DNA of 64,000 bases from Candidatus Latescibacterota bacterium (GCA_965242865.1 CBDETK010000013.1:672001-736000), one strand, 5' to 3'; positions 30,026 to 64,000 are shown, numbered from the stretch's first letter. Program-made: numbers and translations. Notes: a model not told the origin generated them from the letters alone.

Positions 30026-30035
30026 AGGACACACA

Positions 30036-30860: not shown

Positions 30861-33800
30861 TCTCTCATAAAGGGAGGATATACTTTATGTCGCTTATGAT
30901 CGCAGTAATGACCCTGTTGTCTATGCTCATGGTAGATGAGACAGGGGCGGATGCGGCCAGTGATTTGAATTTGGCCGAGATGTTTTCGCCGATCTTGATT
31001 CTGACGGAAGAGACCGGCACGGACTATGACGAGACGGAGCCTATCCGCGTCATCAAACCGGAACCGGTGGAAATCGTCGGAGCGCACAATATTGCGTATA
31101 TGTGGTTTGATATACCCGGAATTGGTCAGGGAAATTACTTAGATTCAGAGTATTTTAATACCAATGACCTTTCCTTGAACGAAGATTTATTATCTAAACA
31201 ATTCTATGGGACGACTTCACCAAATAGATTCGATTTTGATAGAGGTAAGTTTGCCTTTTTAACAGGAGTTGAGCCGTTCACATTTATAGTTCGCTATGGC
31301 TCAACAAAAATGCCCAAAGCCCCAGATGGCGTTAGTTATCCCGATCACCCCGCCGGCAAGCCATATGTAATAGACCGTAGACCGTGCCTATTTTGACTAT
31401 CCCGGTAAAATCGCCAGCGAGTGGAACAATACGTACTTTGGCACAGGAGAGCAGGTCGACTATCAGATCGCCCCAATATCCTATTATAGAGGCGCGAACC
31501 ATCCCAATACGGCTTATGTGCATATATACGAGAGAACAATTGATAAGTACAAGGCTAAGTATGATCCCATCACCGTTATCCAATACAAATACTTCTACCC
31601 GTACAATGACTGGTGGAATAACCATGAAGGGGACTGGCAGGGTATCGACGTAGTGGTCAGTTCGCGGGATCCCGCTACCGCCGAATTCCTAGGTGTAGAG
31701 TATCGGTTTCATGGTGCATGGTTGAGTTACTACAAAGATTATGGCGATAAACCTGGGATAACCAATCGCGTTGTATTCGATCCGGAACGTGCCGTAAGAC
31801 TGATCGACACCCACCCGGTAGCCTATATAGGTGCTGGATCGCACGCGGCATACCCTATTGGCGGAGAAATTGAGCTCCACTTCACTGACACCGGTGGTAA
31901 TGCAGGAACAGAGGGAGCAAGTGGAACTGTAGGAGGCGACGAAGGAGTACGTGGAGAAGTAGGGGGAGACAGGGAATACATGAGCCATACGGGCTTAGTG
32001 CTCAGCACTTTAGCCGATGGTTCCCATAGCGATCTATGGGAGAGCTATAACTTGGTGCTGTTGCCCGATCCTGATCCAACCAACACCAATAACATGGGCC
32101 TTACACCAGACATGAGCTGGTTGGGAGCGCGGATACTGTGGGGGACGCCAGTGGTTCATGGCCCCGGTGGAAACAAGAGCCCAAAGGGGCCTTATAACAG
32201 AAATTACGGACCAAATAGCAAGAGCAGAGGTTGGGGGGATTTGAAGTTGTTCACCGCAAAAACGCTATACGGTGATACTTTTCACCATAGCGATTTAGAA
32301 ACACACAGCTATCACCATTGGGCCATTATCGGCGACGAGACATGGAGTGGCACAATCTCTCTGAGCGGCGATGTGGTGGTCTTTCCTGGGGCGACGCTTA
32401 CGATACAGGCCGGCACCACCGTTGAGTTCTCTCCGGACGATCGCCGCCAGTCGGATGATCGCCACCAGTTCAAGGAAGGTAACGACAGGCTCTCGGAGAT
32501 ATTCGTGTATGGCACCTTGAAGTCCGAAGGAACCAGTAGTAGTCCAGTTGTATTTAGAGGCTCCAATGTCTCGGATGATGAGCGGCATTCTGAGTTGCGT
32601 TGGGATTGGGGCGGCATCCGCATGATGGCGGGCAGTTCGGATACGGTACGCCATACTCAGGTTCGCAATGTGCCCCTCCCGTCGGTCCGTCCGACGAATC
32701 TGAGGGTGGTCGTCGGTGATGGCGCGGTGACGTTGCGGTGGGAGGAGCCGTCCCCGTCCGATGCGAGTATCACCGGGTGGCAGTATCGCACCAAGCCGGA
32801 GACTGCTACTACTTGGGGGGATTGGGAGGACGTGTCCGGGCGGTCAACGCACGAGGCGGTGGTGTCGTCGTTGGCGCACGGGTTGCGGCACCAATTTGAG
32901 GTGTGGGCGGTCAACGCCACTGGTAGCGGACCGGCGTCGGCGGTGTCGGCGTCGTTGCTGGAGGTGGCGTTCATTGAGCCGATCGACCCGGTCAGGGCGA
33001 TACGCGCACGTTACACCCTGATCGAAAGTGGCAAGCCGGTCGTCTTCGTGCGCGGCGTGCGCGGCCAAGCCGAAGATCCGGCCCTAACGGCCAACAAGGT
33101 GCAAGTGGGGGTTCAGTTGACGCCGGCGACCGACCGGCGGGTGACCATTCCCATCACCGTAACGGCCGGTTCGGCTGAGTCCGCCGACTACGAGGTGCGC
33201 GGCCTGCCCGCTTCGGGCCGGTTGGTCTTCGGTGTGGGTCGGGCCTTAAAGGAGTTCAGGATCTGGGCCAACGCCGACGCGGACTTCGACGACGAGACGA
33301 TTCAACTTAGCTTTGGGGCGTTGCCGGCGGGGGTGCAGGTGGGGCGCCCGGCGTCGGCGATGGTGACGATATACGATACACCATCGGCTCCGATGGGCTT
33401 GGAGGCGGAAGGCGGCGATGGGCAGGTGACGCTGCGGTGGGACGATCCGGACAACAGGAGCATCGCCGGGTGGGAGTATCAGCAGCGGCGCATCAGATCG
33501 TCGTGGAGCGAGTGGCTACCTATGAAAGCCAGCAACGCTCGGACGACCGAGTATTTGGTGAAGGATCTGACCAACGGGGGGAACTACCTGTTTAAGGTGC
33601 GGGCGGTCACTACGCGGGGGTTGGGGGATGAGTCGGCATCGGTGGCGGCTCGTCCGAGTTCGTTTATTGCGGAAGCGGCCCCTGGCGCGGTGCGGCTACG
33701 CTGGGACGATCCGGGGGATGCGGCGATCGACCATTGGGAGTATCGGGTGCGTCGGGTTCCGGATAAGTGGGGTCCGTGGGAGCCGATAGCAGGCAGTGCT

Positions 33801-33913
33801 GCGACGACGACCGAGCATACGGTGCGGGAGTTGGACAGCGGGGTGTTGTACCGGTTCAAGGTGCGGGCGGTTTCCTCGTCGGGGGCGGCGGTGCTGACTT
33901 TGGCGGCGGTCGA

Positions 33914-36851
33914 GGCGACGCCGCAGGTTCCCTGTCAACTGACGGGGGCGACGGATCCGACATTTGCGGAAAACGCCCCTGGGGCGGTAGGCACGTACAC
34001 GGCCAGTGCGGGGTGTGATTCGGCGTTGTCGTGGGGGTTGGCGGGGACGGATGCGCGCTTTTTTGAGTTGAAAGGGGACGGCATGTCGCGCACCCTCGAG
34101 TTCAATAGTTCTCATAGTCCTCCCAACTTTGAGCAGCCTGCCGACGCTGGCGCGAACAACACTTACGCGGTGTCGGTGTCCATCGGCGACGCATCCGTGT
34201 CGGTGACCGTGTCGGTGACCGATGCCAACGATGCCGGTGTCATTAGTCTTTCGACGACCGCGCCGCGAGCGGAGGAATCCCTCACGGCAACGCTGTCGGA
34301 CGAAGATGGCATTGCAGAGCCGGTGTATTGGACGCCCCACTATGAGAGCACCTCGGACAGGGATGGCGTAACCGGGCCGGCGTCGGAGGCGACACAGACA
34401 TGGACGCTGACCATCCCCAGCAGCCGCGTGGGGCAGCCCCTGCGCCTCCAAGCCGACTACACGGACTCTTTTGGCGCGGCGTCGGCGACGAGTGCTTTGA
34501 CTTCGCCGGTGCGCCCGGCCTCCAACCGCGCCCCGTCGGTGTCGGGTCCGGCGGCGGTGGACATAGCCGAAAACAGTTCCGCCCCGTGGTTGTTGGGCAC
34601 TTATATCGGCCGCGACCCGGATGGCGACGAGTTGACGTGGAGCGTAACAGGCACGGATGCCAGTGCGTTTGAATTGAAGGAGCCGGCGTCGCCGGGGGCG
34701 GAGCCGTCGCGGGAACTCCATTTGGCGAATGCGGCCGATTACGAAACCCAAGATAGCTTATGACGTGTGGGTGAAGGTCTCCGACGCGACACTGTCGGAC
34801 AGCCTGCGGGTGTCGGTGTCGGTCGTCAATCAGAACGAGGATGGGTCGGTGGTGCTGACGGGGGGGTTGCCGCCGGAGGTGGGCACGGCGGTGGTGGCGG
34901 GGTTGACCGACCCAGATGGGCAGATTACGGGATCGGCTTGGCAGTGGCAGCGTCGGTTGGGCACAACGGGAGCGTGGGAAGCGATTGGGGCCGGGGTGTC
35001 GGGGGCTTCATCAGCGGTGTCGGGTGCGGCCTCGGCGTATCCTGAGCTATCGAGCTACACGCCGGTGTCGGGCGATGTGGGGTGGCAGTTGCAGGCGACA
35101 GTGCGCTACCGCGATGGGCACGATCCCAACACGGAACGGATGTCCGCAAGTGATCCAAGTCGGGCGGTGGTTGGTCCGCCGGTTGCGCCGTCGGAGGTGT
35201 CGTTTCGGTCGGGGTGGACGCAGGTTCGGGTGGAGTGGTCGGCGGTGGCGGCAGCGACGGGCTACGCGGTGCAAGGGCAGAGCAAACCCTTTGATGGCGG
35301 CACATGGCCTTCGACATGGACATCATTGGCGTCTGAGGTCGTCGGCCAGCGGCGGTATGTTCACCGGGGGGTGTCGCCGGATAGCCTATATCGGTATCAG
35401 GTGCGGGCGCGGGTAGGCGAGTTGGAGAGTGCGTGGTCGGCGGCGCAGCCTTTGGCGGGGGTTCAGCCTGGGGTGGGTCCGCCGACCGGGTTTACCGCCG
35501 AGGCCGGGGCGACCCAGGCGACGCTGCGGTGGACGGGGCCGGATCACGCCAGCATCACCCAGTGGCGGTATCGGGATGTGACGGCGGAGGGGGCCGATAC
35601 GGACGGGGACTGGCTGGACGCGACGGTCAGCGGTAGTGCCGCGACGGCGTGGGTGGCTACGGTAGAGGGCTTGACAGCGGGTCAAGCGTATCGGTTTCAA
35701 GTGCGGGCGGTCAATGGGGCCGGCGGTGGTCGGCCTTCGGCGGTGAGCAATACGGTAACGCCGTGGTTGGCTCGGCCCACGGGCGGTTCGGTTTCAGTGC
35801 AGGCGGGACCGGCGCTGAAGGTTGCTTGGTCATCGGTGGCGTCGGCGACCGGCTATGAGGTGGAAGGGCAGAGCAAGCCATTCGATGGCGGGTCTTGGCC
35901 ATCGGCGTGGACGACGCAACAGGCCAACGGCGCACAGCCCTATGTGCATCGAGGGGTCGATGCCGACCGCCGCTATCGCTACCGAGTGCGGGCGCGAGTG
36001 GGCGCGACGGTGAGTGCCTGGTCGGATACGCTGCCGGGGGTGGCGGGAGTGCAACTGCCACCGGGCGCGCCGATGGGCTTGACGGCCACGCCGGGCATCC
36101 GACAGGCGACGCTTCGGTGGACCGGGCCGACGCACACCAGCATCAGCGAGTGGCAGTATAAGCGGGGCCAGATTTTGGAGCCGATCACCGCGTGGGGGGG
36201 ATGGCTGTCCATGGGGACGGCGGCGACGACGCGGTCGTTTATAGTGCGGCATCCGCTGGTGGATGGGGGGTCTTATCGGTTTGAAGTGCGGGTGCGCAAC
36301 GGCGGGGGATGGTCCGCGACGACGCGGACGGATACGGTGACGTTGCCGGTGGACACCAAGGGGCGTGTGGTGCTCTCGACGACCACGCCGCGGGTCGGCG
36401 ACGACTTGATGGCGACATTGACCGACCCGGATAACCCGACGGATGTGGGGTTTACTTGGTCGTTTTCCCTGCCGGCGGGGGTGTCGGGGGCCAACGGAGC
36501 CGATCCGCCGCCCAGCGCATTGCAGTCGGAGCCGTTGCGGGTGAGCACAGTGCATTTGGGGGTGCAGATCCGGGCGCGGGTGTCCTATGCCGATGACTAT
36601 GGTCGGCAACAGGTGCAAAGCCCCAAGACATCGGCGGTGGTGGGGCCGCCGTGGGCGCCGCGGACGTTTACGGCGACGGCCGGCGATGGGCAGGTGGCGC
36701 TTTCTTGGGAGGCGCCCTTGAAAATCGGCGGCTCGGCGATCACCAGTTACCAGTACCGCTACAAGAAGACCAGCGGTAGCTGGCCGGAGAACTGGACGAG
36801 TGCCGGCACGGCGACGAGCGCGACCGTGACGGACTTGACCAACGGCACTCC
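33914..36851 (+). repeat. ~3-kb cadherin/Fn3 stalk repeat, copy 1
   Basis: Near-identical DNA to 40271-43289, 48092-51069 and 58899-61889; boundaries approximate. Confidence 0.9.
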
Positions 36852-36913
36852 TTTTAACATAGAAAACCCGAGATTCCGGTTGCTCGCAAAGGTGAGTGCT
36901 GGAACGGCTTCGG
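36850..36913 (+). pseudogene. Remnant of an LRF-family gene fused to the end of large gene 1
   Basis: Encodes PFNIENPRFRLLAKVSAGTAS, versus PFDIENRGLRLLAKVAAGTAS at 23641-23704. Confidence 0.8.
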
Positions 36914-36929
36914 AGACAGGAGATACGTC

Positions 36930-37859
36930 ATGCTTTTTCTAATGCTTTTTTGGCTAGGCGTTTGTGCTTCCGCCGCAATGGCTATAGCCGATGAAATCAA
37001 TGAAGTCATCACCCCCATAGAACTCAATCCGCACGACTACGTCCCTTTGGCAGTGGGAAACCGCTGGACGTACGAGCATTATTATCTCAATGAATCATAT
37101 CCCGGTGGAAGTGGCTGGTACGACTTGGAATACCTGAAGGCCATGGAGATACCTGGATATCCACATGGGAGGGAGAATCCAATACCGCCCGATTCTCTGA
37201 CCTTTGTAGAGAGAATATTGACTATTGAGATCACTCATACGGAGATGATTGACGGCTTTGAGTACTTTGTTTTTAGCGGTCCCGATTATGCTTGGCCGCC
37301 CTTACCCGATTTGTTCTGGGGAGGGAAAAAGGTACGTATATCCGATGAAGATTTCTTAGTCTTCAGATGGAATGGGCAGGATCTCCCATTATATGACTTC
37401 AGCCATCATCATTTGGACCGTTATGATGATACTTATTATGACAGTTATAGGTATACAGTCATACTTCCAGGAATTGAGGAGGTGAGTGACTTCTATCGTA
37501 AGGTGGACATCCGCGGGATGGACATCTTCTTAGCCCTTTTCTCTGGCATGGACTACTATAATTCCGGTATCTACTTCAGTCGCTATATACTCCCCAGTTA
37601 CCCGGAATTGCTCTTTTTTTGGGATCATGGAGAAACCCAGTTGGTGTTTGTACACGGATATGGGATGGGGCTGTTTAATATCGCGGTGCTACGCGAAGAG
37701 TGGGTGCCTATATTTGAGACTCTCCTTACACCGATTTCAGTGAGTATTGACGGGAAAGAAATTCCATACCCCGAACATCTACCTCCTCCTTTCCTCGACT
37801 CTTCTGTTCAGCCTACATCGTGGGGACAGTTGAAAAACTCTATACTCAGGACAAAGTAG
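36930..37859 (+). CDS. Secreted PLxVGNxWxY-family protein with SWG tail
   Basis: Signal peptide; DYVPLAVGNRWTYEHYYLN; closest to 25005..25916; ends SSVQPTSWGQLKNSILRTK. Confidence 0.72.
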   Translation: MLFLMLFWLGVCASAAMAIADEINEVITPIELNPHDYVPLAVGNRWTYEHYYLNESYPGGSGWYDLEYLKAMEIPGYPHGRENPIPPDSLTFVERILTIEITHTEMIDGFEYFVFSGPDYAWPPLPDLFWGGKKVRISDEDFLVFRWNGQDLPLYDFSHHHLDRYDDTYYDSYRYTVILPGIEEVSDFYRKVDIRGMDIFLALFSGMDYYNSGIYFSRYILPSYPELLFFWDHGETQLVFVHGYGMGLFNIAVLREEWVPIFETLLTPISVSIDGKEIPYPEHLPPPFLDSSVQPTSWGQLKNSILRTK

Positions 37860-37898: not shown

Positions 37899-40800
37899 AT
37901 GATAATTCTACTGTTTTTGCTCATTAGTCTCTACTCCTCCAGCACTTGGGGCCAAGATTTCGTTTGTGGGTTTGGTCTGGCACCGGAATCCGAGAATGAT
38001 CAGGTCATGGGTGCGAGTGGCCATAATCCGGCCTTCTACCGGAGTCAAACCATCCAACCGCTGGTTCTGTTTGGAAGGTTTGATGGTGCAGCAGATCGTA
38101 CTTTAACGACACTTTGGGATCGCGAGGGCGTCGCCAATCAGCGCGCCGATTCTTTGCTATCCGTCACTCATGAAGGTAGTTTGGCGCACTATTTCTCCGA
38201 GATGTCGAATGGCACCTTGACGTTGGTCCCACCCCCCGGCGGTATTGACCTGACTTGGTATGAGGCGCAAGATGACGAGGTCTCCGATTATGTAGGATCG
38301 CCATGTGGTACTAATTGGCATGGTGGTGTGCAGCGATTTGTACGGGAAGTGATCATGGATGCCGACGCTTCTATTAACTTCAGCGATTCCATTTATGATA
38401 GAGATATGAACGGTCTGGTCGACTTGGTTATCGTGACCGTTCCACAACAGTTTGGAAGGGCGTGCGGTCCCAATGGGACGGTCTTTTACGAACACGACTT
38501 TTCCCCCCTTCTACGTATAGATGGAGTCGGCATAGAAGCTATCATCACGTCGGATGATCGGCCAAGTTTGCCTTTCATTGTAGGCGTGTTAGTGCATGAG
38601 TATGGCCACGTAATGGGCCTACCTGAGCTTTTTGACCGAGATCACCAATCCGTAAATCGGCCTCCCCGCAGACCGATAGAGCACGGAGCCGGCATCGGCC
38701 TTTGGGGCGTAATGGCTGGCGGCGAGGGATGGCCGCATGTCCCAAGTAGGTCGTCCGGCCCGAATCCCATGTCAGCGTGGTCTAGGATGGAGGTAGGGTG
38801 GCTCACGCCTAGGACCGTGGCCGCCGACACGTTGGGAGTTCAAATCCACGATGTCAATTCTTCTATGGGCGAGGTACTTGAGATTCCCGTGCCCGGTTCA
38901 AGAACGGAGTACTTTTTAGTGGTCAATCGGCAGAATACGTATAGTGAGACCCGTAGTGAGACTCAGGTGGGGAGTTACTACGACGACTTGGCTCCAGTGA
39001 GTGGTCTGGCGATCTGGCACGTTGATGAGAATGTCCAGAATTTCCCTGGAGCCCTTGATGTCAACGAAAATGAGGTCCACAAACGTGTTGATCTGGAGTG
39101 CGCTGACGGACTTTTTTTAGACCGAGGTAGGGGCAACGTGCCTAATTCTGAAATCGGAGGAGATAATCTGGACTACTGGTCAAATGATGCCACCTATAGA
39201 AGGATTCGCAATGGAAATCAAGGCGACGCGACCGATTTGTGGATCTCTGGCGCGTTCACGCCGTATAGCAACCCCTCAACAGCGGGCTACGATGGCAATA
39301 TTCAGGATGAGTTCACAGGGATCGCGGTGCGGAACATTCAGGCTCGGCCCAATGGGGTGATGCAGGCCGACATCGTCTTTCTGCCTCTGGAGCCGGCGAA
39401 CCTTCGGGCGGAAGCGGGTATCCGTCAGGTGACGCTGCGTTGGAACGCGCCAATGCCTAATGGCGGTTCAGCGATCACCGGGTATGAGTATCGTCAGAGC
39501 CTTGATGGGGGGCGCACATGGATGCCCTGGACGCCGGTGACCGGAGGATCCACGGACCGTATCCAGACAGTGGGGGAGTTGACGGCCGGTACGCTGTACA
39601 CGTTTGAGGTGCGAGCGGTCAACGCGTCGGGGTCAGGTGGGTGGGCTTCCGCCACGGCGACGCCGGTGCCGTCGGTGCCGTCGGCGTCGGTGACGGCTGG
39701 GTTTCGCCGGATTCATGTGGACTGGACGCCGGTGGCGTCGGCGACGGGCTACGATGTGCAGGTGCAGAGCAAACCCTTCGATAGGGGCCCTTGGCCGACA
39801 GCATGGTCGCCGTTGGCCACCAATACCGCCGGCCGGATCCCCAATAATAGGTCGTCGCTTCTGCGGGAGACGCACACGAGGGTGTCGCCGGATAGTTTGT
39901 ATCGGTATCAGGTGCGCTCGCGGGCGGGTGCGTCGGTGAGTGGGTGGTCGGCCCTGGTGCCGGATGCGGATGGGGTCCAGCCCGGCGTTGATGCTCCGAC
40001 GGAGTTTCAGGCGGAGGCGGGTGCTGGTCAGGTGACGCTTCGGTGGACGGGTCCGGATCACGCCAGTATTACTCAGTGGCAGTATCGGGATGTGACGGCG
40101 TCGGGGGCCGATACGCGGGGGGGTTGGCAGGACGCAGCGGTCAGCGGTAGTGCCTCAACGGAGTGGTTGGCCACGGTGGACGCCTTGACGCCGGGACAAG
40201 CCTATCAGTTTCAATTGCGGGCGGTCAATGGAGCGGGGGACGGCCAGCTGTCGGCGGTGAGCGATGCGGTGACGCCGCGGGCGCCGGTCTGCCTGCTGAC
40301 GGGGGCGATGGCTCCGACGTTTGCCGAAAACGCCACTGGAGCGGTAGGCACGTACACGGCCAGTGCCGGGTGTGGTTCGGCGTTGTCGTGGAAGTTGGAG
40401 GGGACGGATGCGAGTGCGTTTGTGGAGTTACAAGGGACGGGCGCGTCGCAGACGCTTGAGTTCAAGCGTCCTCCCAACTTTGAGCAGCCTGCCGACGATG
40501 GTGCGAACAACACCTACGCGGTATCGGTGTCCATCGGCGACGTGTCGGTGTCGGTTACCGTGTCGGTGACCGATGCCAACGATCCCGGTGTCATTGTCCT
40601 TTCGACGACCGCGCCGCGAGCGGAGGAATCCCTCACCGCGACGCTATCGGACGAAGATGGGATTGCAGAGCCGGTGTATTGGACACCCCACTATGAGAGT
40701 GCCTCGGATGGCGGCGGCGTAACCGGGCAGGCGTCGGAAGCGACGCAGACATGGACGCTGACTATCCCCAACAGCCGTGTGGGGCAGTCCCTGCGCCTCC

Positions 40801-43349: not shown

Positions 43350-43460
43350 CGGCCCTACGGCGAAAATTCCAGAGGAATACAAACTCAATGTTTTACCGTC
43401 TGAACACTTAGCTTCTCGGCATCCTATCTAAGGAGGAATTATCATGCAAAACAGTATGCT
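43350..43460 (+). repeat. ~100-bp leader repeated before two PLxVGN genes
   Basis: CGGCCCTACGGCGAAAATTCCAGAGGAA...CTCGGCATCCTA..TAAGGAGGAAT.ATCATG at 43350 and at 44395. Confidence 0.8.
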
Positions 43461-44398: not shown

Positions 44399-44490
44399 CC
44401 TACGGCGAAAATTCCAGAGGAACACAAACCCCAACGTTTTACTACCTGAACATTTAGCCTCTCGGCATCCTACTCTAAGGAGGAATCATC

Positions 44491-53182: not shown

Positions 53183-53359
53183 GCCAACCAAAACGGCTTT
53201 GACGCCTTGCGCATCGACACGCCGACGCCGGTGCGCTTTGTCGGCTTGCAGATGGGCGAGCCGCTCGCGCCGGTAGAGCCGGATCGCGTCAGCGCGGGCG
53301 ACCGCCGCCTCGAAGTGGTGTTCACCAGCCACAAGATAACCTTTGCCAACAACGTGCCG
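53183..53359 (+). repeat. 177-bp copy of 29726-29902
   Basis: GCCAACCAAAACGGCTTTGAC...AACAACGTGCCG is identical by eye in both places. Confidence 0.92.
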
Positions 53360-53363
53360 CTGC

Positions 53364-53408
53364 ATATCCCTGCTCAGTTGGGGTCGATTGAAACAGAAAG
53401 GACTGTGA
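53364..53408 (+). pseudogene. 3' remnant of a further beta-helix array gene
   Basis: Reads ISLLSWGRLKQKGL-stop, then G-ATG, exactly like the junctions inside the array. Confidence 0.8.
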
Positions 53409-53409
53409 G

Positions 53410-54081
53410 ATGCGCTTTATTTTGCTAGTCTTATGGCTACTGCTCGCCCTTTGGGAGCCAGTGGCGGCTCGGACGATTCGGGTCTCAGAAAAGGAATCAG
53501 AACACGGGGAACTGGCCTTGTATTGGGCTCTGATAGAGGCGGCTCCGCACGATACGCTGCTCGTCGCTGCCGGGTATTATGAGGGGGGTGGTATTGACAA
53601 ACCCCTGACGCTCATTGGGGCCGGAGCCGATAGCACAATAGTGGCAGGTCCCTACACGGCAATCGGGATAGGAGCCGAAGGGGTAACCATTGAAGGATTT
53701 TATATACTGGGCTTTGGGAAATGTCGTCTGACGAGTGCTATTTATTGTAATAATTGTTCTGCAACGCTCAAGCACAACATTCTCGAAGGGTGTTACTCGG
53801 CGATTACCACCTTTGATAATGCTCGACTAACCGTCAACTACAACCAACTAATAGGCAACTTCGCCTTTGAGGTTTTCCCCTTTGACCCTCCGAGTGCTAT
53901 TGACGCTCGCTTCAACTGGTGGGAGACGACGGTTGAACAGGAGATACAGGCCAAGATAGCCGCGACGATGGACGAGGTGGTGTATCGGCCTTGGCTGCAA
54001 GGTCCCGAGGAAATCTTCCGTGATCTCCCTACCTTTATATCCTTGATCAGTTGGGGTCAACTGAAACAGAAAGGACGATGA
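53410..54081 (+). CDS. Secreted right-handed beta-helix (pectin-lyase-like/NosD-like) protein, copy 1, SWG tail
   Basis: IEAAPHDTLLVAAG.YEG..IDKPLTLIGAGADSTI, GVTIEGF.I, IDARFNWW; ends ISWGQLKQKGR. Confidence 0.75.
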   Translation: MRFILLVLWLLLALWEPVAARTIRVSEKESEHGELALYWALIEAAPHDTLLVAAGYYEGGGIDKPLTLIGAGADSTIVAGPYTAIGIGAEGVTIEGFYILGFGKCRLTSAIYCNNCSATLKHNILEGCYSAITTFDNARLTVNYNQLIGNFAFEVFPFDPPSAIDARFNWWETTVEQEIQAKIAATMDEVVYRPWLQGPEEIFRDLPTFISLISWGQLKQKGR

Positions 54082-54082
54082 G

Positions 54083-54760
54083 ATGCGCTTTATTTTGCTA
54101 GTCTTATGGCTACTGCTCGCCCTTTGGGAGCCAGTGGCGGCTCGGACGATTCGGGTCTCAGAAAAGGAATCAGAACACGGGTACATGGCCTTGTTTTGGG
54201 CTCTGATTGAGGCGGCTCCGCACGATACGCTGCTCGTCGCTGCCGGGGATTATGAGGGGGGTAGCATCGATAAACCCCTGACGCTCATTGGCGCAGGGGC
54301 CGATAGCACAATAGTGGGAAGTTACAGCGGCGCGGGACTCGGGATAGGAGCCGAAGGGGTAACCATTGAAGGATTTTATATACAGAGCTACTTTGATAAA
54401 TGTCGTGGGACGAGAGCTATTGTGTGTAATAATTGTTCTGCGACACTCAAGCACAACATTCTTGAAGGGTGTTACTCGGCGATTACCACCTTTGATAATG
54501 CTCGACTAACCGTCAACTACAACCAACTAATAGGCAACTTCGCCTTTGAGGTTTTCCCCTTTGACCCTCCGAGCGTTATTGACGCCCGCTTCAACTGGTG
54601 GGGGACGACGGTTGAACAGGAGATACAGGCCAAGATAGCCGCGACGATGGACCAGGTGGTGTATCGGCCTTGGCTGCAAGGTCCCGAGGAAATCTTCCGC
54701 GATCTACCTACCTTTATATCCTTGATCAGTTGGGGTCGATTGAAACAGAAAGGACTATGA
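54083..54760 (+). CDS. Secreted beta-helix protein, copy 2, SWG tail
   Basis: Tandem paralog; ends ISWGRLKQKGL. Confidence 0.75.
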   Translation: MRFILLVLWLLLALWEPVAARTIRVSEKESEHGYMALFWALIEAAPHDTLLVAAGDYEGGSIDKPLTLIGAGADSTIVGSYSGAGLGIGAEGVTIEGFYIQSYFDKCRGTRAIVCNNCSATLKHNILEGCYSAITTFDNARLTVNYNQLIGNFAFEVFPFDPPSVIDARFNWWGTTVEQEIQAKIAATMDQVVYRPWLQGPEEIFRDLPTFISLISWGRLKQKGL

Positions 54761-54761
54761 G

Positions 54762-55436
54762 ATGCGCTTTATTTTGCTGGTCTTATGGCTACTGCTCGCC
54801 CTTTGGGAGCCGGTGGCGGCTCGGACGATTCGGGTCTCAGAAAAGGAATCAGAACACGGGTACATGGCCTTGTTTTGGGCTCTGATTGAGGCGGCTCCGC
54901 ACGATACGCTGCTCGTCGCCGCCGGCTTGTATGAAGGGGGTGGTATTGACAAACCCCTGACGCTCATTGGTGCCGGAGCCGATAGCACAATAGTGGAAGG
55001 TCACTTCACTGGACTCGGGATAGGAGCCGAAGGGGTAACCATTGAAGGATTTTATATACGGGGCTCTGGGAAATGTCGTCTGTCGAGTGCTATTTACTGT
55101 AATAACTGTTCCGCAACACTCAAGCACAACATTCTTGAAGGATGTTACTCGGTGATTACCACCGATGGTAATGCTCGACTAACCGTCAACTACAACCACC
55201 TAATATCAGGAACCTTCGCCTTTGACGTTTTTCCCTCTGACCCTCCGAGCACTATTGACGCTCGCTTCAACTGGTGGGAGACGACGGTTGAACAGGAGAT
55301 ACAGGCCAAGATAGCCGCGGCGGTGGACGAGGTGGTGTATCGGCCTTGGCTGCAAGGTCCCGAGGAAATCTTCCGCGATCTCCCTACCTTTATATCCCTG
55401 CTCAGTTGGGGCCAACTGAAACAGAAAGGACTGTGA
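54762..55436 (+). CDS. Secreted beta-helix protein, copy 3, SWG tail
   Basis: Tandem paralog; ends LSWGQLKQKGL. Confidence 0.75.
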   Translation: MRFILLVLWLLLALWEPVAARTIRVSEKESEHGYMALFWALIEAAPHDTLLVAAGLYEGGGIDKPLTLIGAGADSTIVEGHFTGLGIGAEGVTIEGFYIRGSGKCRLSSAIYCNNCSATLKHNILEGCYSVITTDGNARLTVNYNHLISGTFAFDVFPSDPPSTIDARFNWWETTVEQEIQAKIAAAVDEVVYRPWLQGPEEIFRDLPTFISLLSWGQLKQKGL

Positions 55437-55437
55437 G

Positions 55438-56121
55438 ATGCGCTTTTTCTTGCTGGTCTTATGGCTACTGCTCGCCCTTTGGGAGCCAGTGGCGGCTCGG
55501 ACGATTCGGGTCTCAGAAAAGGAATCAGAACATGGGTACTTTGCCTTGTATTGGGCTCTGATAGAGGCGGCTCCGCACGATACGCTGCTCGTCGCCGCCG
55601 GCTTGTATGAAGGGGGTGGTATTGACAAACCCCTGACGCTCATTGGTGCCGGAGCCGATAGCACAATAGTGGAAGGTCACTTCACTGGACTCGGGATAGG
55701 AGCCGAAGGGGTAACCATTGAAGGATTTTATATACGGGGCTCTGGGAAATGTCGTCTGTCGAGTGCTATTTACTGTAATAACTGTTCCGCAACACTCAAG
55801 CACAACATTCTTGAAGGATGTTACTCGGTGATTACCACCGATGGTAATGCTCGACTAACCGTCAACTACAACCACCTAATATCAGGAACCTTCGCCTTTG
55901 ACGTTTTTCCCTCTGACGAATTGCGAGGCAATAGTGGCATTGAGTCGCTCAATAGCCTGAGTTCCATTGACGCTCGCTTCAATTGGTGGGAAACGGAAAA
56001 GCAGGCCGAAATTCAAGCCAAAATATCTAGTCCTAGAAAGGATCTAATCAATGTTTCTGACCATCTAACCGAGAGTACAAAAGAATTAATCATCAACCGG
56101 GAAAACGAGGGAGATAGGTGA
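55438..56121 (+). CDS. Secreted beta-helix protein, copy 4, divergent C-terminus without SWG tail
   Basis: Nearly identical to copy 3 up to FPSD (~55917), then diverges; GTGA overlap with the next gene. Confidence 0.72.
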   Translation: MRFFLLVLWLLLALWEPVAARTIRVSEKESEHGYFALYWALIEAAPHDTLLVAAGLYEGGGIDKPLTLIGAGADSTIVEGHFTGLGIGAEGVTIEGFYIRGSGKCRLSSAIYCNNCSATLKHNILEGCYSVITTDGNARLTVNYNHLISGTFAFDVFPSDELRGNSGIESLNSLSSIDARFNWWETEKQAEIQAKISSPRKDLINVSDHLTESTKELIINRENEGDR

Positions 56122-59100
56122 TTACTATGAACCGTGCTATACTCAAAATAACCGTTCTGCTTGTTCTATTACTCGTCGGTACTGTCCATTCGGCGACCAT
56201 AACCACGTCAGGTCGTAAGGTACTAATAGACGGGGAGCCTTTCTTTGCTCTTGGCGTTTACTACCAAAGGGAGGGTTCACTTAGTACGACCCACACCTCA
56301 TGGCAAACGCTAAAGGATCATCGTTTTAATCTACTAAATCTATCCGATCCTTTTCCCGTTAGGTCCATTGATTCCCAAACGAGTCCGTACGCCTCCTCGT
56401 TTAGGGGCTTTATTACGGCGAATCAGGTGGACTTACCGTGGCTAAGCAATACTCACCAGCCCTCTTACAACAACCCTACTAATGCACAATCTATAATGCA
56501 GAACGCGGCGGCTCATGATATATACGTCATCGCAGACCAAGCTCCTTTTACACCTGATGGTGCCAGAGCATTAAACGGAACTAACCTGAGGACTTATGGC
56601 ATTGATGCCATGGGAAATGACGTCATAAATGCTACTAAGAGACAGGAATTCATTAACAATTTAGCATTGCCATCCCCTCAAGGGTGGTCTCATTTCGGTA
56701 TAGATCATGACAATTTCTTTGGGTGGAACAGTTTGGACGAACCTGTATGGTTTTGGGGGCCTTATGAAGGTACGTCCTATAAGGGGACGCCGATTCGTTA
56801 TAACGAAACTCAAGTAACGAATATGTATAATAACCTAATCTTGGATAGCTATAATAAAATCAAGGCTGTCGATAGCACTCACGTCGTATTTATGAATTTC
56901 GCATACGCTCACGGATCCGCTTTTAGTGGGGGTGCGGCCTCGTGGAATGCGGATGGCGAGTTGGTCGTCGGAGGGGATAACATTGTCGATAATTATGTAA
57001 GAGACTTAAGACGTTACAGTCAAGCGGCTGACATTATTGCCATGGATATCTATCCGATACATAGCTACAGAGGCCGGACGCGCGGTACTTGGCCTGATCG
57101 CTATTGCCTGTTCGATGATAGTAGCTTATCCGTTATTGGAAAATATCAGAAATTGCTCAATGAGCGCGTCGTAACCGATAAGCCTGTTTACCAAGTACTA
57201 CAGTCGTGGACTGGTGCCATGAGGCCAACTCTGACGACAGCAGAAGTACGATTTCAAGCGTATGATGCAATCATCAACGGGGCTGCGGGCCTACTGTGGT
57301 TTGGCTGGCATGTTCCTGCTGCGTCCTCAGGGACGGACCTTACTTGGGAGCGCACCAAGGTGCTCGTGCGCGACGAGTTAAGCGATCCCATTCTCTATCC
57401 CGTCTTGTCGGCGGATACGTCTCCCCTCCACAGTTCGGTCTCCGTCGATACGCCTGATATAGAATTCTTACTCAAGAAATACAATGGCCAGTCGTATCTT
57501 TTCGCGGCTATACTTCTTCCACGGCGACCCACAGCGCAGTAACTTTTCGTGGGTTGTGTTCACAGGCGACGAGTGCTGAGGTGCTATTCGAGTCGCGCAT
57601 GGTCACTTGCCGTAATGGGGAAATCCAAGACAGCTTCGATCCCTACCAAGTGCATGTGTATAAACTCGACAACTGGTCGGGAACACTGGCTCAGAATACG
57701 ACTTGGAGCGGCACGGTCCGAGTCTCCGGTGATATAACGGTTGGTTCGGGTACTACACTGACATTGGAGCAGGGGACCGAGGTTCGCTTTCTGGCTAACA
57801 CGGATGATACCAACGGCGGCGACGACACCGCTCGCTCGGAACTGATCGTCGAGGGCACACTCAACGCGAACGCCGGCACCATCACCTTCCGCTCGGCGAG
57901 TGCTTCTTCGTCCAATACTGATTGGTATGGCATCCGCGTGGCCACCGGCGGTCGTGCCGATGTGTCCAACGCAACGATCCGCGATGGGATGCACTGTGTG
58001 CAGACCCATCAACTCAACTCGGTCACGCTGACCGGCCTGACCTGCGGTAATGGTGCTTCGCCGGTGCGCTTTGCCGAAAACAGCACGGACGCGGTAGCTA
58101 CCTACCAAGTACTGGGAGCCTCGTCGGTTATGTGGACGCTGGGCGGCGCGGATGAGACACTCTTTACCATAAATGCTACCGGTCAGTTGAGGTTTGCTAC
58201 CCCCCCGAACTTTGAGATGCCAAGTGGTAGTGGTGCGAATCGCGATAATACTTACGAAGTAACGGTGGAGGGGTATGCCGGGGAAGTCTATACGCTTTTC
58301 CCGGTGGTTGTGCAGGTGTTTAATGTGGAGGAGGAGGGGTCGGTTTCGCTGACGGGGGGGAGGCCGGAAGTGGATCAGGTGGTGGTGGCGACCTTGACCG
58401 ATCCGGATGGCGTGGTGGGGGTTCCGTCTTGGTGGTGGGAACGGGGGTCGAGTACGACGGATACGTGGACGGAGATTGCGTTGGCACATGCTGAGTCCTA
58501 CAAGCCGCAGCGGGATGATATAGGGTATCAGCTACGGGCGACGGCGCATTACACCGACCGTCATGGCTCCAACAAAAGTGCGTCGGGGGCCACGAGTGCG
58601 TCGGTGGTCGGTCGGCCGAGTGCGCCGCGGGAGTTTGAGGCGGTCCCGGGCGCGGGTGCCGGGGAGGTGGTCTTGCGTTGGCAGCCGCCGGCGTCGGATG
58701 GGGGGTTGCCGATAGATGTTTATAAAGTGCTGTATTTTTCGGAGACGCAGCCGAATACGGATAAGGCTGGTTTTTCGGCGGTGTCGGGGGGTTCGTCGGC
58801 ACGGGACACGACGATTAAGGGGTTGACCAACGGGACGCGGTATGTGTTTCGGGTGGCCGCCCATAACGAAGTGGGCAACGGGGATCGGGCCGAGGCAAAG
58901 GCGACGCCGCAGGTTCCCTGTCAACTGACGGGGGCGACGGTTCCGACGTTTGCGGAAAACGCCCTTGGGGCGGTAGGCACGTACACGGCGAGTGCGGGGT
59001 GTGGTTCGGCGTTGTCGTGGAAGTTGGCTGGGACGGATGCGAGTGCGTTTACGAAGTTACAAGGGACGGGCACGTCGCGGATGCTTGAGTTCAAGCGTCC

Positions 59101-62100
59101 TCCCAACTTTGAGCAGCCTGCCGACGCCGACAAGAACAACACCTACGCGGTGTCGGTGTCCATCGGCGACGTATCCGTGCCGGTGACCGTGTCGGTGACC
59201 GATGCCAACGATGCCGGTGTCGTTAGCCTTTCGACGACCGCGCCGCGAGCGGAGGAATCCCTCACGGCGACGCTGTCGGACGAAGATGGGATTGCAGAGC
59301 CGGTGTATTGGACACCCCACTATGAGGGTGCCTCGGACAGCGGCGGCGTAACCGGGCCGGCGTCGGAGGCGACGCAGACATGGACGCTGACTATCCCCAA
59401 CAGCCGCGTGGGGCAACCCCTGCGTATCCAAGCTGACTACACAGACTCTTTTGGCGCGGCGTCGGCGACGAGTGCTTTGACTTCGCCGGTGCGCCCGGCC
59501 TCCAACCGCGCCCCGTCGGTGTCGGGTCCGGCGTCGGTGGACATAGCCGAAAACAGTTCCTCACCGTGGTTGTTGGGCACCTATACTGGCCGCGACCCGG
59601 ATGGCGACGATCTGACGTGGAGTATAACGGGCACGGATGCGAGTGCGTTTGAATTGAAGGAACCGGCGTCGCCGGGGACGGAGCCGTCGCGGGAACTCCA
59701 TTTGGCGAATGCGGCCGATTATGAAGCCCAAGCGCGCTACGACGTGTGGGTGAAGGTCTCCGACGCGGTGCTGTCGGACAGCCTGCGGGTGTCGGTGTCG
59801 GTCGTCAATCAGAACGAGGATGGGTCGGTGGTGCTGACGGGGGGGTTGCCGCCGGAGGTGGGCACGGCAGTGGTGGCGGGGTTGACCGATCCGGATGGGC
59901 AGATTACGGGATCGGCTTGGCAGTGGCAGCGTCGGTTGGGCACAACGGGAGCATGGGAAGCGATTGGGGCCGGGGTGTCGGGGGCTTCGTCGGCGGTGTC
60001 GGGTGCGGCCTCGGCGTATCCTGAGCTATCGAGTTACACGCCGGTGTCGGGCGATGTGGGGTGGCAGTTGCAGGCGACGGTGCGCTACCGCGATGGGCAC
60101 GATCCCAACACGGAACGGACGGCAGAGAGTGATCCAAGTGAGGCGGTGGTCGGTCCGCCGGTTGCGCCGTCGGGGGTGTCGTTTCGGTCGGGGTGGACGC
60201 AGGTTCGGGTGGAGTGGTCGGCGGTGGTCGCGGCGACGAGCTACGCGGTGCAAGGGCAGAGCAAACCCTTTGATGGCGGGTCGTGGCCTTCGACGTGGAC
60301 ATCATTGGCGTCCGATGTCGTTGGCCGGCGGCGGTATGTTCACCAGGGGGTATCGCCGGATAGCCTGTATCGGTATCAGGTGCGGGCGCGGGTGGGCGAG
60401 TTGGAGAGTGCGTGGTCGGCGGCGGAGCCTTTGGCAGGGGTTCAGCCCGGGGTGGGTTCGCCGACGGGGTTTACCGCCGAGGCCGGGGCGAGCGAGGCGA
60501 CGCTGCGGTGGACGGGGCCGGATCATGCCAGCATCACCAAGTGGCGGTATCGGGATGTGACGGCGGAGGGGGCCGATACGGACGGGGACTGGCTGGACGC
60601 GACGGTCAGCGGTAGTGCCGTGGCGGGGTGGTCGGCCCCGGTAGAAGGCTTGACGGCCGGTCAAGCGTATCGGTTTCAAGTGCGGGCGGTCAATGGGGCC
60701 GGCGGCGGTCGGCCTTCGGCGGTGAGCAATACGGTCACGCCGTGGTTGGCTCGGCCCACCGGCGGTTCGGTTTCGGTGCAAGCCGGCCCGGCACTGAAGG
60801 TTGCTTGGTCGGCGGTGGCGTCGGCGACCGGCTATGAGGTGGAGGGGCAGAGCAAGCCATTCGATGGCGGGTCGTGGCCGTCGGCGTGGACGACGCAGCA
60901 GGCCAACGGCGCACAGCCCTATGTGCATCGAGGGGTGGACGCCGACCGCCGCTATCGCTACCGGGTGCGGGCGCGGGTCGGCGAGACGGTGAGTGCATGG
61001 TCCGATACGCTGCCGGGGGTGGCGGGAGTGCAACCGCCGCCGGGCGCGCCGACGGGCTTGACCGCCACGCCGGGCATCCGACAGGCGACGCTGACGTGGA
61101 CGGGGCCGACGCACACCAGCATCACCGAGTGGCAGTATAAGCGGGGCCAGATTTTGGAGCCGATCACCGCGTGGGGAGGGTGGCTGTCCATGGGCACGGC
61201 GGCGACGACGCGGTCGTTTACAGTGCGGCATCCGCTGGTGGATGGGGGGTCTTATCGGTTTGAAGTGCGGGCACGCAACGGCGGAGGATGGTCGGCGACG
61301 ACGCGGACGGATACGGTGACGTTGCCGGTGGACACCAAAGGGAGGGTGGCGCTCTCGACGACCACGCCGCGGGTCGGTGACGACCTGACCGCGACGTTGA
61401 CCGACCCGGATAACCCGACGGATGTGGGGTTTACTTGGTCGTTTTTCCTGCCGGCAGGGGTGTCGGGGGCCAATGGGGCCGATCCGCCGCCCAGCGCAGT
61501 GCAGTCGGAGCCGTTGCGGGTGAGCACGGTGCATTTGGGGTTGCAGATCCGGGCGCGGGTGTCCTATGCCGATGATTATGGTCGGCAGCAGGTGCAAAGT
61601 CCCAAGACGTCGGCGGTGGTGGGGCCGCCGTGGGCGCCGCGGACATTTACGGCGACGGCGGGCGACGGGCAGGTGGTGCTTTCTTGGGAGGTGCCCTTGA
61701 AAAGCGGCGGCTCGGCGATCACCAGTTACCAGTACCGCTACAAGAAGACCAGCGGTAGCTGGCCGGAGCACTGGACGAGTGCCGGCACGGCGACGAGCGC
61801 GACGGTGACGGACTTGACCAACGACACTCCGTACTCCTTTGCGGTGCGGGCGGTCAATGGCTACGGCGACGGCACGGTCGCCTCAGCGGTGGCGACGCCC
61901 CAGCCGAAAAACCGCGCCCCGGATGTATCGGGTCCGGCGTCGGTGTCGGTGGACGAAAACAGCCTCACGTCCACGTCATTGGGCACGTACACTGCCCGCG
62001 ACCCCGACGGCGACGAACTGACTTGGAGCGTGACGGGGACAGATGCCCGTGCGTTTGAGTTGAAGACGCCGACGCCGCAGGGGACGAACCCGTCGCGGAC

Positions 62101-64000
62101 GCTGCACTTCCGCAACAAGCCCGATTACGAGACCCAGGACGACTACCAAGTCAGCGTGCAGGTCTCCGACGGGTCGCTATCGGACAGCCAGTCGGTCTCG
62201 GTGTCGGTCTCCGATATAAATGACGCCCCGAAGTTGTCGTGTACGGCGAACTCGGTGCGCGAAAACACCACCGATACGGCGGGCACATGCACCGCCAGTG
62301 ATGAGGATGGCGACGCGCTGACTTGGAGCGTGACGGGGACGGAGGCCAGTGCGTTTGAGTTGAAGACGCCGACGCCGCAGGGGACGAACCCATCGCGGAC
62401 GCTGCATTTTCGCAGCAAGCCCAATTACGAGGCCAAGAGCAGCTACCCCGTTACGGTGTCGGTCTCCGACGGGTCACGGGCGACGAGTCAATCGCTCACG
62501 GTGTCGGTCACCAATGCGGACGATGCGGGCAGCGTAACTCTGGCTCCAGACCCCCCCCAAGTCGGCCAGAAGCTCATCGCCACGCTCAAAGACGACGATG
62601 GGCGGGTCGTGGTGACTCGGTGGGCTTGGGAGCGGTTTCCCGAACCCTTTGGCGCGACGGGCGCGTCAGGGCTGGCCACGGGCGAGTACACGCCAGCGGC
62701 CGGGGAGGTCGGCCAGTATGTGCGGGTAACGGCCTATTATACCGATGGGCACGGGGAGAACAAGCAGGCGCAGAGCGCGCAAACCGCGGCGATTGTGGAT
62801 GTGCCGGGGGCCCCGCGGGACGTTACGGCATCGGCCGGCGACGGGCAGGTGGCGTTGAGTTGGAAGGCCCCGTTGTCGGATGGGGGGTCGAAGATTACCG
62901 GCTACCAGTACCGCCACAAGGCGGCGGGCGGCAGCTACGCTGGGTGGTCCACCACCACCACCACGAGCGCGACGGTGCGTAGCCTGACCAATGGCACAGA
63001 GTACACCTTTGCGGTGCGGGCGGTCAATGGCTACGGCGACGGGCGAGTGGCTACCGACACGGCCACGCCCCAGTCAAGCAACCGGGCCCCCTCGGTGTCG
63101 TGTACAGTACACTCGGTGGCCGAAAACAAGACCGGCACGGCGGGTTCCTGCACGGCCAGCGACCCGGAAGGCAACGCGCTGAGTTGGAGCGTGACGGGCA
63201 CGGATGCCGGTTCCTTCCAATTGACGGGCACGGGCACGTCGCGCACCCTCCACTTGGGGAGTAAAGCTAATTACGAAGCCAAGAAGCGCTACCAAGTCAG
63301 GGTGCGCGTCTCCGATGGCTCACTGTCGGATAGCGAAGCGCTCACCGTGTCGATTACCAATGCGGAGGAGGCGGGTTCGGTGGCGCTGTCTCCGGCCGTG
63401 CCGCGGGTGGGCAGGCTACTGACCGCGACGCTTACCGACCCTGATGGGGTGACAGGGTCTCCGTTGTGGGCTTGGACGCCCCTCGGCCCATCCGGGGCCG
63501 ACGACGACGATGCCGCCGAGCCTCCGGCGGTGTCTGGGGCCAATGGCTCCGCCACGAGCACCTACACCCCCACCACGGCCGGCGTTCGGATGCAGGCGAC
63601 CGCGTTCTATACCGACGGCCATGGCCCCAACAAACGGGCGCACGGAACGTCGGGGGCTGCCATCGACAAACCGGGGCCGCCGGGTGCCCTGTCGGCGCGG
63701 CCGGGCAACATCTACACGCGCGTAGATTTGAGTTGGACCGCGGCGGCGGCCAATGGTTCACCGATTACGGACTATCAGTATCGCTATAAGCGGAACGGCA
63801 CCAGCCGGTGGTCGGGTTGGTCGAGTGCAGGGACGGGAACCAGTTACACGGTATCCGGCCTCACGTCCAATACGGACTACAACTTTGAGGTGCGGGCGGT
63901 CAACGCGGTGGGGAGTGGGTCGGCCGCGTCGGCTACGGGTCGGTCGCGAGCCGAGGACGAGGACGAAGAAGAAACCGAGGACGAGGACGAAGAAGAAACC
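56118..64000 (+). CDS. Large secreted protein 5: glycoside-hydrolase-like TIM-barrel head, beta-helix, cadherin/Fn3 stalk; one frameshift; runs off the window
   Basis: Signal peptide; IDGEPFFALGVY, WNSLDEP, DIIAMDIYP, QVLQSW, EVRFQAYDAIINGAAGLLWF. One base is missing near 57510; the frame starting at 57512 (TSSTATHS...DPYQVHVY...TWSGTVRVSGD) was open at every spot checked to 64000 and has no entry in the ORF track. Confidence 0.75.
58899..61889 (+). repeat. ~3-kb cadherin/Fn3 stalk repeat, copy 4
   Basis: Near-identical to the other copies; the only one that continues in frame into further cadherin/Fn3 domains. Confidence 0.9.
63953..64000 (+). repeat. 24-bp tandem repeat encoding acidic EDEDEEET (at least 2 copies)
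   Basis: GAGGACGAGGACGAAGAAGAAACC x2 at the window end. Confidence 0.85.

Follow-up and report, generated by a model that had tools for sequence, protein, structure and literature searches.

The KLIKK peptidases of Tannerella forsythia are described, in the cited part of PMC4404884, as enzymes of disparate classes that are exported by the type IX secretion system (T9SS), share a near-identical C-terminal part and are encoded in two clusters, with a small open reading frame (ORF) before each gene. The potempins, as presented in the cited part of PMC9890683, are lipoproteins of the outer membrane with a β-barrel fold, each inhibiting the peptidase to which it is linked; they are unrelated to one another but have conserved signal peptides. 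For the gingipains and HagA, the cited passages report identical adhesin repeats, combinatorial modules and gene conversion (PMC5266723), as well as recombinational deletions (PMC9328147). Here we analyse 64,000 nucleotides of a Candidatus Latescibacterota bacterium (GCA_965242865.1 CBDETK010000013.1:672001-736000; G000:C13:672001-736000 in our numbering), referred to below as the window, which carries an array of giant surface-protein genes with differing N-terminal heads on a shared stalk of ~3 kb. The closest known system is the KLIKK-peptidase/potempin system, followed by gingipains/HagA. An initial annotation, made from the sequence of the window, knew of no described system that matched the array; as portrayed in the cited parts of PMC4404884, PMC9890683 and PMC5266723, both of these systems share its layout, which is already described in print. 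What differs here is the 3-kb stalk, the set of eleven genes whose upstream copies are truncated and decaying, the presence of non-protease heads, the larger partner proteins with a common C-terminal tail, and the phylum.

With moderate confidence, we interpret the array as a lineage-specific family of T9SS surface enzymes of the KLIKK/gingipain kind, in which the stalk evolves in concert and partial duplicates undergo birth and death. The family extends beyond the window. On the main contig (5.61 Mb of a 6.0-Mb genome), ORF maps place eleven genes for giant surface proteins, which we named A1-A6 (locus A) and B1-B5 (locus B); 1.7 Mb separates the two loci. The stalk segment is present in ten copies genome-wide, all on this contig and separated from one another by unique heads and unique flanks. 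Five copies belong to locus A (four in the window and one at genome positions 742851-746142) and five to locus B (minus strand, 2415907-2446271). The feature had been taken to end at window position 64000; A5 continues to genome position 736633, the sixth gene, A6, lies wholly outside the window, and locus B had not been in view.

The four window stalks, each ~3 kb as initially described, are 90.1-93.3% identical pairwise in self-comparison, less than the near-identity first ascribed to them. Pfam finds the predicted Fn3 and cadherin domains together with Calx-beta, and scans of all stalk-bearing ORFs add only Ig-like families. Across the two loci, the ten stalks are kept 90-95% alike, and the copies are mosaics made by gene conversion. 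Recombination tests were run on the ten stalks over 2238 ungapped columns with 289 informative sites. The four-gamete test was failed by 62% of informative-site pairs, and the incompatibility of neighbouring sites was 0.40 against 0.618 when permuted, with none of 1000 permutations as low. The longest identical tract (917 bp) is shared by A5 and B3, which lie in different loci, and 22 of the 45 pairs exceed all 200 shuffles. At columns 2000-2400, A3, A6, B4 and B1 are mutually identical and ~78% identical to the remaining six copies. The mosaic copies, the four-gamete test and the long identical tracts make recombination inside the stalk, proposed in the initial annotation, demonstrable. A5 and A6 are recent duplicates with heads and flanks 95-100% alike, yet 223 of 2238 stalk sites differ between them, and the A5 stalk is nearest to that of B3 (75 differences); the stalk has therefore been overwritten since the duplication. 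The stalk dN/dS of 0.18-0.49 (median 0.31, 45 pairs) shows that stalk variation arose under purifying selection.

The heads had been seen to be AT-richer than the stalks, and their GC content is indeed 0.45-0.54 against 0.65-0.69. The stalk had also been singled out as G-rich, but its GC at third codon positions (GC3) is 0.77, in line with a median of 0.76 over the 1401 ORFs of 500 or more residues in the genome, whereas heads and partner genes range from 0.49 to 0.59. The compositional outliers are thus the heads and partners, not the stalk.

At least five head types are carried by the shared stalk, in accord with the earlier view that unrelated head kinds sit on one stalk. M6-like metalloprotease heads are found in A2, A4, B2, B4 and B5. 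The A2 head matches TIGR03296 with E 4.4e-26 and 92.4 bits, under the cut-off of 110.8, and PF05547 (cut-off 22 bits) scores 31.7 bits on A4, 25.3 on B2 and 21.0 on A2. The HExxH motif (H233-E234-x-x-H237) is invariant in 11 of 11 aligned heads. The A3 and B1 heads are divergent zincins with only weak reprolysin-type HExxH matches. Three window heads had been assigned to M6; the assignment applies to those of the genes at 37899 and 51914, which are M6-like with HExxH, and the head at 45354 is the zincin of A3. The A5/A6 head has no Pfam match. The model of the A6 head, taken from the intact paralogue (12 sequences; pLDDT 68.2, pTM 0.77), resembles clan GH-A TIM barrels (Foldseek E 1.7e-9, TM 0.46/0.52), the matches being GH5, GH30, GH42, GH164 and GH157 chains with E values from 1.7e-9 to 1e-7, TM of 0.35-0.52 and 9-16% identity. 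An Atlas lead for this head, GH42, is borne by 13% of the members of one cluster. The A5/A6 head is thereby supported as GH-like at the level of the predicted fold only, which is how far the initial GH-like label carries. The A1 head, first described as Vps62/NPP1-like, yielded no Pfam family at E<=5, and none was found on the head region in ten of ten homologues scanned; it had no PDB sequence match at E<=1 and no usable Atlas hit. It has 1510 relatives among library proteins, typically at the N-terminus of large Fn3 proteins. For the B3 head, a Pfam scan gave no annotation. The N-termini of all head genes are hydrophobic, as judged by eye.

Between the A2 head and its paralogues in the genome, identity is 50-55%, against 61% to a head in another species (G008). 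A further species, G013, has a full-length gene of 2823 aa with stalk and sorting domain, whose head matches that of A4 at 68% identity (300/438). Taken with the stalk comparisons, these identities show the heads to be older than the stalks.

Each of the five window head genes is preceded by a small gene at a distance of -4 to 39 nt, and the partner products begin with an export-type hydrophobic leader, judged by eye; the statement that a small secreted-protein gene lies directly upstream of each holds to that extent. The partner families differ. A gene ending in ...LRF accompanies A1, members of a PLAVGNxWTY family (16 in the genome) accompany the M6 and zincin heads, and three or four tandem β-helix genes stand before A5 and A6. 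The partners of B3 are two genes (L003, G000:C13:2435912-2437383, minus strand) that show 59% identity to B3 itself over its first ~110 residues; this B3 "partner" is a free-standing copy of the N-terminal domain of the B3 head with an added tail. In locus B, three M6 partners are divergently oriented.

Every partner except the ...LRF type ends in SWGx[ILVM]K followed by 5-10 residues, in its fuller form (T)SV(E/Q)..SWGx[ILVM]K plus 5-10 residues. The motif occurs in the last 25 residues of 67 ORFs of at least 100 aa, accounting for 67 of its 90 occurrences genome-wide. These 67 ORFs represent several unrelated families of small exported proteins, the largest with 25, 16 and 6 members, and 11 of them adjoin an ORF that bears a T9SS C-terminal sorting domain (CTD). 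No NCBIfam or Pfam model matches the tail. From its distribution in sequence it looks like a candidate sorting or docking tag. In the window, the tail is seen for example at 24130-25008, 24975-25916, 36930-37859, 43444-44334, 44491-45357, 51232-51897 and 53410-55436.

The partner of the A2 head, S2, was studied further. Its 246 homologues all lack a Pfam family. S2 itself belongs to none of the Pfam or NCBIfam families, and neither a PDB sequence search (E better than 0.5) nor Foldseek (E<=0.001) gave a match. Its predicted fold is all-β and barrel-like (pLDDT 76.9). In VIA-align, the top Z of 8.0 (a putative lipoprotein) is tied with autotransporter barrels and LolA-like folds and lies in the range of a common arrangement. 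Prediction of a complex between the A2 M6 head and S2 scored 0.00 in two runs, which is no evidence either way. No lipobox cysteine was seen by eye in the A3 partners S1a and S1b or in the β-helix partners; S2 has ...LGVC. By analogy with the potempins, a partner is most likely a cognate inhibitor or handler of its head. The toxin/immunity comparison made initially is weak, as the heads are hydrolase-like and the partners have export leaders; no toxin family was found among the heads.

The pairing of head and partner extends to other species. The stalk is present in 11 of 24 genomes of the same genus, matching domain by domain only at 40-68% identity, and among 16 genomes from other genera none matched. 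Of six loci with an M6-type head in other species of the genus, five have an SWG-tail gene next to it (four co-oriented, one divergent). Three partner/head pairs have counterparts in G013; S3, the partner of A4, shares 59% identity with the C-terminal 185 aa of the partner that goes with the G013 M6 gene, and the A1 partner (29886..30860) shares 41% with the small gene preceding the A1-type head there. The proposal that a head and its upstream gene form a conserved pair is borne out by these loci, and each head type keeps its own kind of partner gene across species. The first G013 locus reads [LRF gene][A1-type gene, 1185 aa, no CTD][SWG partner][M6 gene, 2823 aa, CTD] and the second [LRF gene][A1-type gene with a broken head, 2014-aa ORF with CTD]. 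The G013 stalks are of their own version, 90.6-95.6% alike between its two loci, the stalk evolving in concert within each genome. The number of cassettes varies between related loci of the two species, with two genes in one and six in the other. Another recent duplication in the genus was observed in G022, where two loci carry, in inverted orientation and at 99.8% identity, a 3.8-kb segment (L120 1893-5731 vs L121 9948-6110) with a regulator-like gene and the beginning of a gene for a giant Fn3 protein.

The genome encodes a full PorU (624 bits vs a cut-off of 420) and ~96-177 T9SS sorting domains, with 96 matches to the type A sorting domain. Among the array genes, the sorting domain (TIGR04183/FlgD_ig) was found in a genome scan at ~30 bits in only three of eleven, A5, A6 and B5; on A6, TIGR04183 scores 25 bits (cut-off 23) and PF13860 37.9 bits. 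The CTD of A5 lies at genome positions 736382-736609. Besides these three, the domain is carried by the next, unrelated gene. The array CTD terminates in ...KMALIR. A1-A4 and B1-B4 stop short of the sorting domain, their stalk copies, where present, ending inside or just after the stalk. Surface display, the role initially assigned to the whole array, has to be narrowed accordingly: the sorting domain that it needs sits only on terminal genes, and every window copy is disrupted. Elsewhere on the contig, two other dense runs of T9SS sorting domains, at ~3157996-3203556 (~20 ORFs, roughly 720-950 aa) and ~367171-408543 (~15), suggest further tandem arrays of T9SS cargo paralogues in the genome.

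The five window genes had been described as if intact, but none of them is a single ORF. A6 (2937 aa) is the only intact full-length gene of the arrays. B2 (1578 aa), B3 (2209 aa) and B4 (1731 aa) are long, intact ORFs without a sorting domain, and B1 and B5 are frameshifted, B5 reading G8 and G6 where the other copies read G7. Head reading frames are open in eight of the eleven genes (A2, the retained part of A4, A6, and B1-B5). Ten of ten ordinary ORFs at 1.5-22 kb of the window yield normal domain matches, and the damage in the array genes is therefore local.

The individual window genes and their partners, all on the plus strand, are as follows. The partner of A1 (29886..30860) is an ORF with the C-terminus ...LSAVAKLRF, without an SWG tail and without a Pfam or NCBIfam family. 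A1 (30887..36942), with its unannotated head and stalk copy 1, is 3'-truncated, lacks the T9SS sorting domain and is spread over three frames. Its first frame change lies between 31264 and 31389, where a 7-bp tandem repeat (TAGACCG x2, 31371-31384) presumably caused it; the second break is an extra T at ~34758, absent from the nine other stalk copies. The A1 stalk (copy 1, 33913..36851; 91.6-93.1% to the other window copies by self-BLAST) ends inside an Fn3 domain, at ...TNGTP|F. S2 (36930..37859), the SWG-tail partner of the M6 head of A2 and a member of the PLAVGNxWTY family, has the C-terminus ...SWGQLKNSILRTK. A2 (37899..43318), an M6-like metalloprotease head with stalk copy 2 (40296..43296 by self-comparison), is 3'-truncated without a sorting domain; its frame is lost at a G10 run (42547-42556), the corresponding site elsewhere being G7, G8 or GGGGAGGG. 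Before A3 lie two SWG-tail ORFs (43444..45357), S1a at 43444-44334 and S1b at 44491-45357; a pair of this type also precedes B1 in locus B (84-96.5% identity), and a third copy is found at 24130-25008. A3 (45354..51117), a divergent zincin head with stalk copy 3 (47793..51069, with ~300 bp of extra 5' homology to A5/A6), is a pseudogene whose GTG start overlaps the stop of S1b. Relative to its paralogue B1, it has a TAG at 45441-45443 (TGG in B1) and a 47-bp gap at 46507.

S3 (51232..51897), the short SWG-tail partner of the A4 head, has a near-copy at genome position 1540093. A4 (51914..53428) is a 504-aa ORF without a stalk, its M6 head (PF05547, 31.7 bits) cut off by a rearrangement; from 53183 onward its frame enters a 181-bp copy taken from the tail of a different gene. 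Next come small β-helix (NosD-like) proteins, encoded by four tandem genes of 673 bp (53410..56121), of which three have the SWG tail and the fourth a different ending. They match TIGR04247 with E 6.4e-12, far under its cut-off, and three further such genes precede A6. A5 (56118..64000) comprises the GH-like head, a β-helix-like segment, stalk copy 4 (58594..61897 by self-comparison) and an extension, continuing to the T9SS CTD past the window; it is broken by a 1-bp deletion at 57510 with A6 as the reference (heads 94.8% identical). Opposite window position 56456, A6 has a 27-bp C-rich insertion (C6-C7 runs, proline-rich), and A5 has a 9-bp insertion nearby.

In locus A, a 12.9-kb tandem duplication relates 53183-66271 to 66091-78798 (window numbering). 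Its border is marked by a 181-bp direct repeat (53183-53363, plus strand), a 99.4% copy of 29726-29906, and the two 181-bp copies bracket a 23.3-kb block containing A1-A4. Pieces of the flanking gene at 28379-29906 recur behind A5 and behind A6 at 98% identity, so that locus A is punctuated by fragments of this unrelated T9SS cargo gene. The 3' ends of the short stalk copies vary (alignment columns ~3100, 3600, 3800 and 4200-4300), as do their 5' homology limits, and no conserved junction motif was found at these points among the copies. Upstream of the array are two spare SWG-tail family-2 genes (24130..25916, plus strand; 24130-25008 and 24975-25916), which are followed by a Schlafen AlbA_2/HATPase_c_4 gene and no stalk gene. 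This gene, at 25935-27422, also carries Fic-like_C and lies between the spare genes and the array. A DNA methylase and an FRG-domain gene are found near the window start (1559-4359).

The bacterium is a sponge symbiont, probably of the Latescibacterota. The nearest named relatives of the M6 head are Candidatus Latescibacterota metagenome-assembled genomes (the top five rows, 44-54% identity), and this, together with the presence of a T9SS, makes Latescibacterota the more likely assignment. We found no literature linking latescibacter- names with type IX secretion. Part of the window is contained in 10 of 12 listed runs from four studies, the named ones being sponge metagenomes; none of the 12 is an RNA run that contains the window. 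Public contigs from four runs, aligned to the window, are short and end at repeat borders. Contigs of three studies match heads and partners up to 100%, and two contigs show zero differences (2468 nt over 36865-39332 and 1948 nt over 38054-40001). One contig continues 29 letters beyond 53183, under the 31-letter rule. In run X6, the bins 43339-47340 and 51343-52676 are uncovered, which is not readable as cassette absence. An alternative joint, 41269->49334 in run X5, was discounted, as its shorter side is only 25 letters, too short by the standard of the tool, and it is out of register with the stalk alignment.

Compared by layout, not by sequence homology, and as far as the cited descriptions go, the arrays share with the KLIKK/potempin system a T9SS organism, predicted enzymes of disparate kinds with a largely common C-terminal part, genes in two clusters and a small exported-protein ORF directly upstream of each, unrelated between pairs. 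Potempins are β-barrels, and the modelled partner S2 is predicted to be all-β. The parts held in common are not the same: potempins share signal peptides, whereas the partners here share the C-terminal SWG tail; the KLIKK proteins share a 30-residue motif and an 86-residue CTD ending in KLIKK, whereas here it is a 3-kb Fn3/cadherin stalk and a CTD ending in ...KMALIR that is present in only three of eleven genes. The partners are also larger (220-310 aa against 98-132 aa for potempins) and mostly without a lipobox cysteine. Unlike the KLIKK peptidases, the heads include a glycosidase-like fold and unannotated domains; three locus B partners are divergent, most copies are truncated or broken, and the phylum is different. 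With the gingipains RgpA and Kgp and with HagA, again as the cited texts describe them, the arrays have in common T9SS cargo with differing or no catalytic heads on near-identical adhesin modules, combinatorial modules, gene conversion, and repeat recombination that deletes or rearranges genes. The gingipain modules are cleaved-adhesin/DUF2436 domains, none of which appeared in Pfam scans of the stalk-bearing ORFs; here the modules are Fn3 and cadherin, and the eleven genes form two tandem arrays with 3'-truncated copies and a dedicated upstream partner for each head.

In the model that we favour, each gene would encode a signal peptide, a catalytic head and a long Fn3/cadherin stalk, to which complete genes would add the extension and the T9SS CTD. 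Among the heads there would be zinc proteases (M6-type or other), a GH-A-like glycosidase and two types without annotation, and a small exported partner specific to each head type would be encoded immediately in front of it. The ten stalk copies of the two loci would be held at 90-95% identity by gene conversion, while the heads stay old and divergent. The arrays would have grown by partial tandem and segmental duplications with breakpoints inside the stalk, leaving 3'-truncated copies, many now apparently decaying, ahead of a single complete gene. Since the shared homology has the heads on its 5' side and the sorting domain on its 3' side, any crossover in the stalk re-associates heads with a complete stalk; we read this re-association as a by-product of the architecture, not as a dedicated switch.

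Several observations sit uneasily with this model. The same polarity, with truncated genes upstream and the complete gene last, is repeated in three arrays (locus A, locus B and L115 of G013), and selection for a store of alternative heads would produce identical polarity. The intact long ORFs of B2-B4, without a sorting domain, are odd for mere debris, and a dN/dS of ~0.3 shows that constraint acted while the copies diverged or took up sequence. G6-G10 runs are the site of three frame breaks, and some of the apparent lesions may be reversible. The low GC of heads and partners persists in other species (total GC in G013 and G022; loci L115, L116 and L119), and simple vertical descent does not account for their lasting low GC3. 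Finally, none of the listed contigs from the four runs bridges a head-stalk junction, and the head-stalk linkage therefore comes from the assembly only.

Systems that store variable modules are also comparable in part. CdiA-CT/CdiI and Rhs loci comprise one complete gene and orphan truncated modules that retain part of the shared region, and homologous recombination can exchange the variable end together with the small neighbouring gene. In Mycoplasma synoviae vlhA and Neisseria pilE/pilS, a complete gene exchanges sequence with arrays of incomplete paralogues by gene conversion. The arrays described here likewise combine a complete gene with truncated copies that keep shared homology. The polarity is mirrored relative to CdiA/Rhs, with a variable N-terminus and an upstream partner; the heads are hydrolase-like, secretion is by T9SS, and the partners have export leaders and so are not cytoplasmic immunity proteins. 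Unlike the incomplete paralogues of vlhA and pilE/pilS, the cassettes keep their start, signal peptide and differing enzyme head, and stalk variation is modest and under purifying selection (dN/dS ~0.3).

It is conceivable, but in our judgement unlikely, that the arrays are a recombinational archive in which upstream cassettes of partner, head and stalk stub are placed before the complete stalk-CTD gene and so change the displayed enzyme. Only the terminal gene is complete in the three arrays, stalk recombination is active and crosses between loci, head and stalk similarity are uncoupled (A5/A6 vs A5/B3), and eight of eleven heads are still open; the difference in cassette number between species and the composition that head and partner share apart from the stalk point the same way. 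The truncation points and 5' limits, however, vary by copy with no conserved junction motif, and Pfam detected no recombinase in the ten flanking ORFs scanned (window 1559-22085, on the locus A side only). Of the three genes with a CTD, which would serve for expression, A5 and B5 are frameshifted. The heads of A1 and A3 are dead, a crossover by deletion cannot be reversed, and no alternative junction was seen in the contigs apart from the one weak joint discounted above. A more elaborate form of the idea is slightly more doubtful still: cassettes would pop out and in through stalk homology within or between loci, perhaps even between co-resident symbionts, with partners tagged by a new SWGxIK signal on ~67 proteins. 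If heads are indeed archived, the low-GC3 cassettes hint at a pool shared among co-resident symbionts. Such an archive, if true, would be an N-terminal mirror of the orphan-module logic of CdiA/Rhs, by which the cell changes the enzyme on a constant T9SS-anchored stalk.

That the CTD-less and frameshifted copies are themselves functional, in the periplasm or through another exit route, with G-run changes phase-varying A2 and B5, is in our view quite improbable. The intactness of B2-B4, the run lengths in A2 (G10) and B5 (G8 and G6 where others have G7) and the stalk dN/dS would fit this idea, but other lesions lie away from long runs (the TAG and 47-bp deletion of A3, the ~34758 insertion and 7-bp repeat break of A1, and the 57510 deletion of A5), and stalks are cut inside Fn3 domains, as in A1. 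No variant of G-run length was listed in the contigs, in which cover of that site is unconfirmed. We give very little weight to the view that the stalk copies and their mosaic pattern are a collage of strain variants produced by assembly or polishing. Contamination of the genome, a metagenome bin, is estimated at 6.8%, and the ending of public contigs at repeat borders, none of those listed bridging a head-stalk junction, would be in keeping with such an artefact. Yet a single 5.61-Mb contig contains all ten copies, with unique heads and flanks in between, the copies differ by in-frame indels and distinct truncation points, the design is repeated in the single-contig genome G013 with its own 90.6-95.6% stalks, and the heads and partners are matched at up to 100% by contigs of three studies.

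Read as a T9SS surface-enzyme family with a concertedly evolving stalk, the arrays extend the KLIKK/potempin and gingipain design to an uncultured sponge symbiont outside Bacteroidota, which suggests a general T9SS solution for displaying a hydrolase tool-kit on the cell surface. They would be a clean case, found in nature, of concerted evolution halting at a domain border, with old heads on a young, homogenised stalk, and would illustrate how arrays of truncated paralogues arise through partial duplication. The conserved pairs of head and partner, and the SWG tail common to unrelated small exported proteins, offer leads to new inhibitor or docking families that may act in sponge-microbe interaction.

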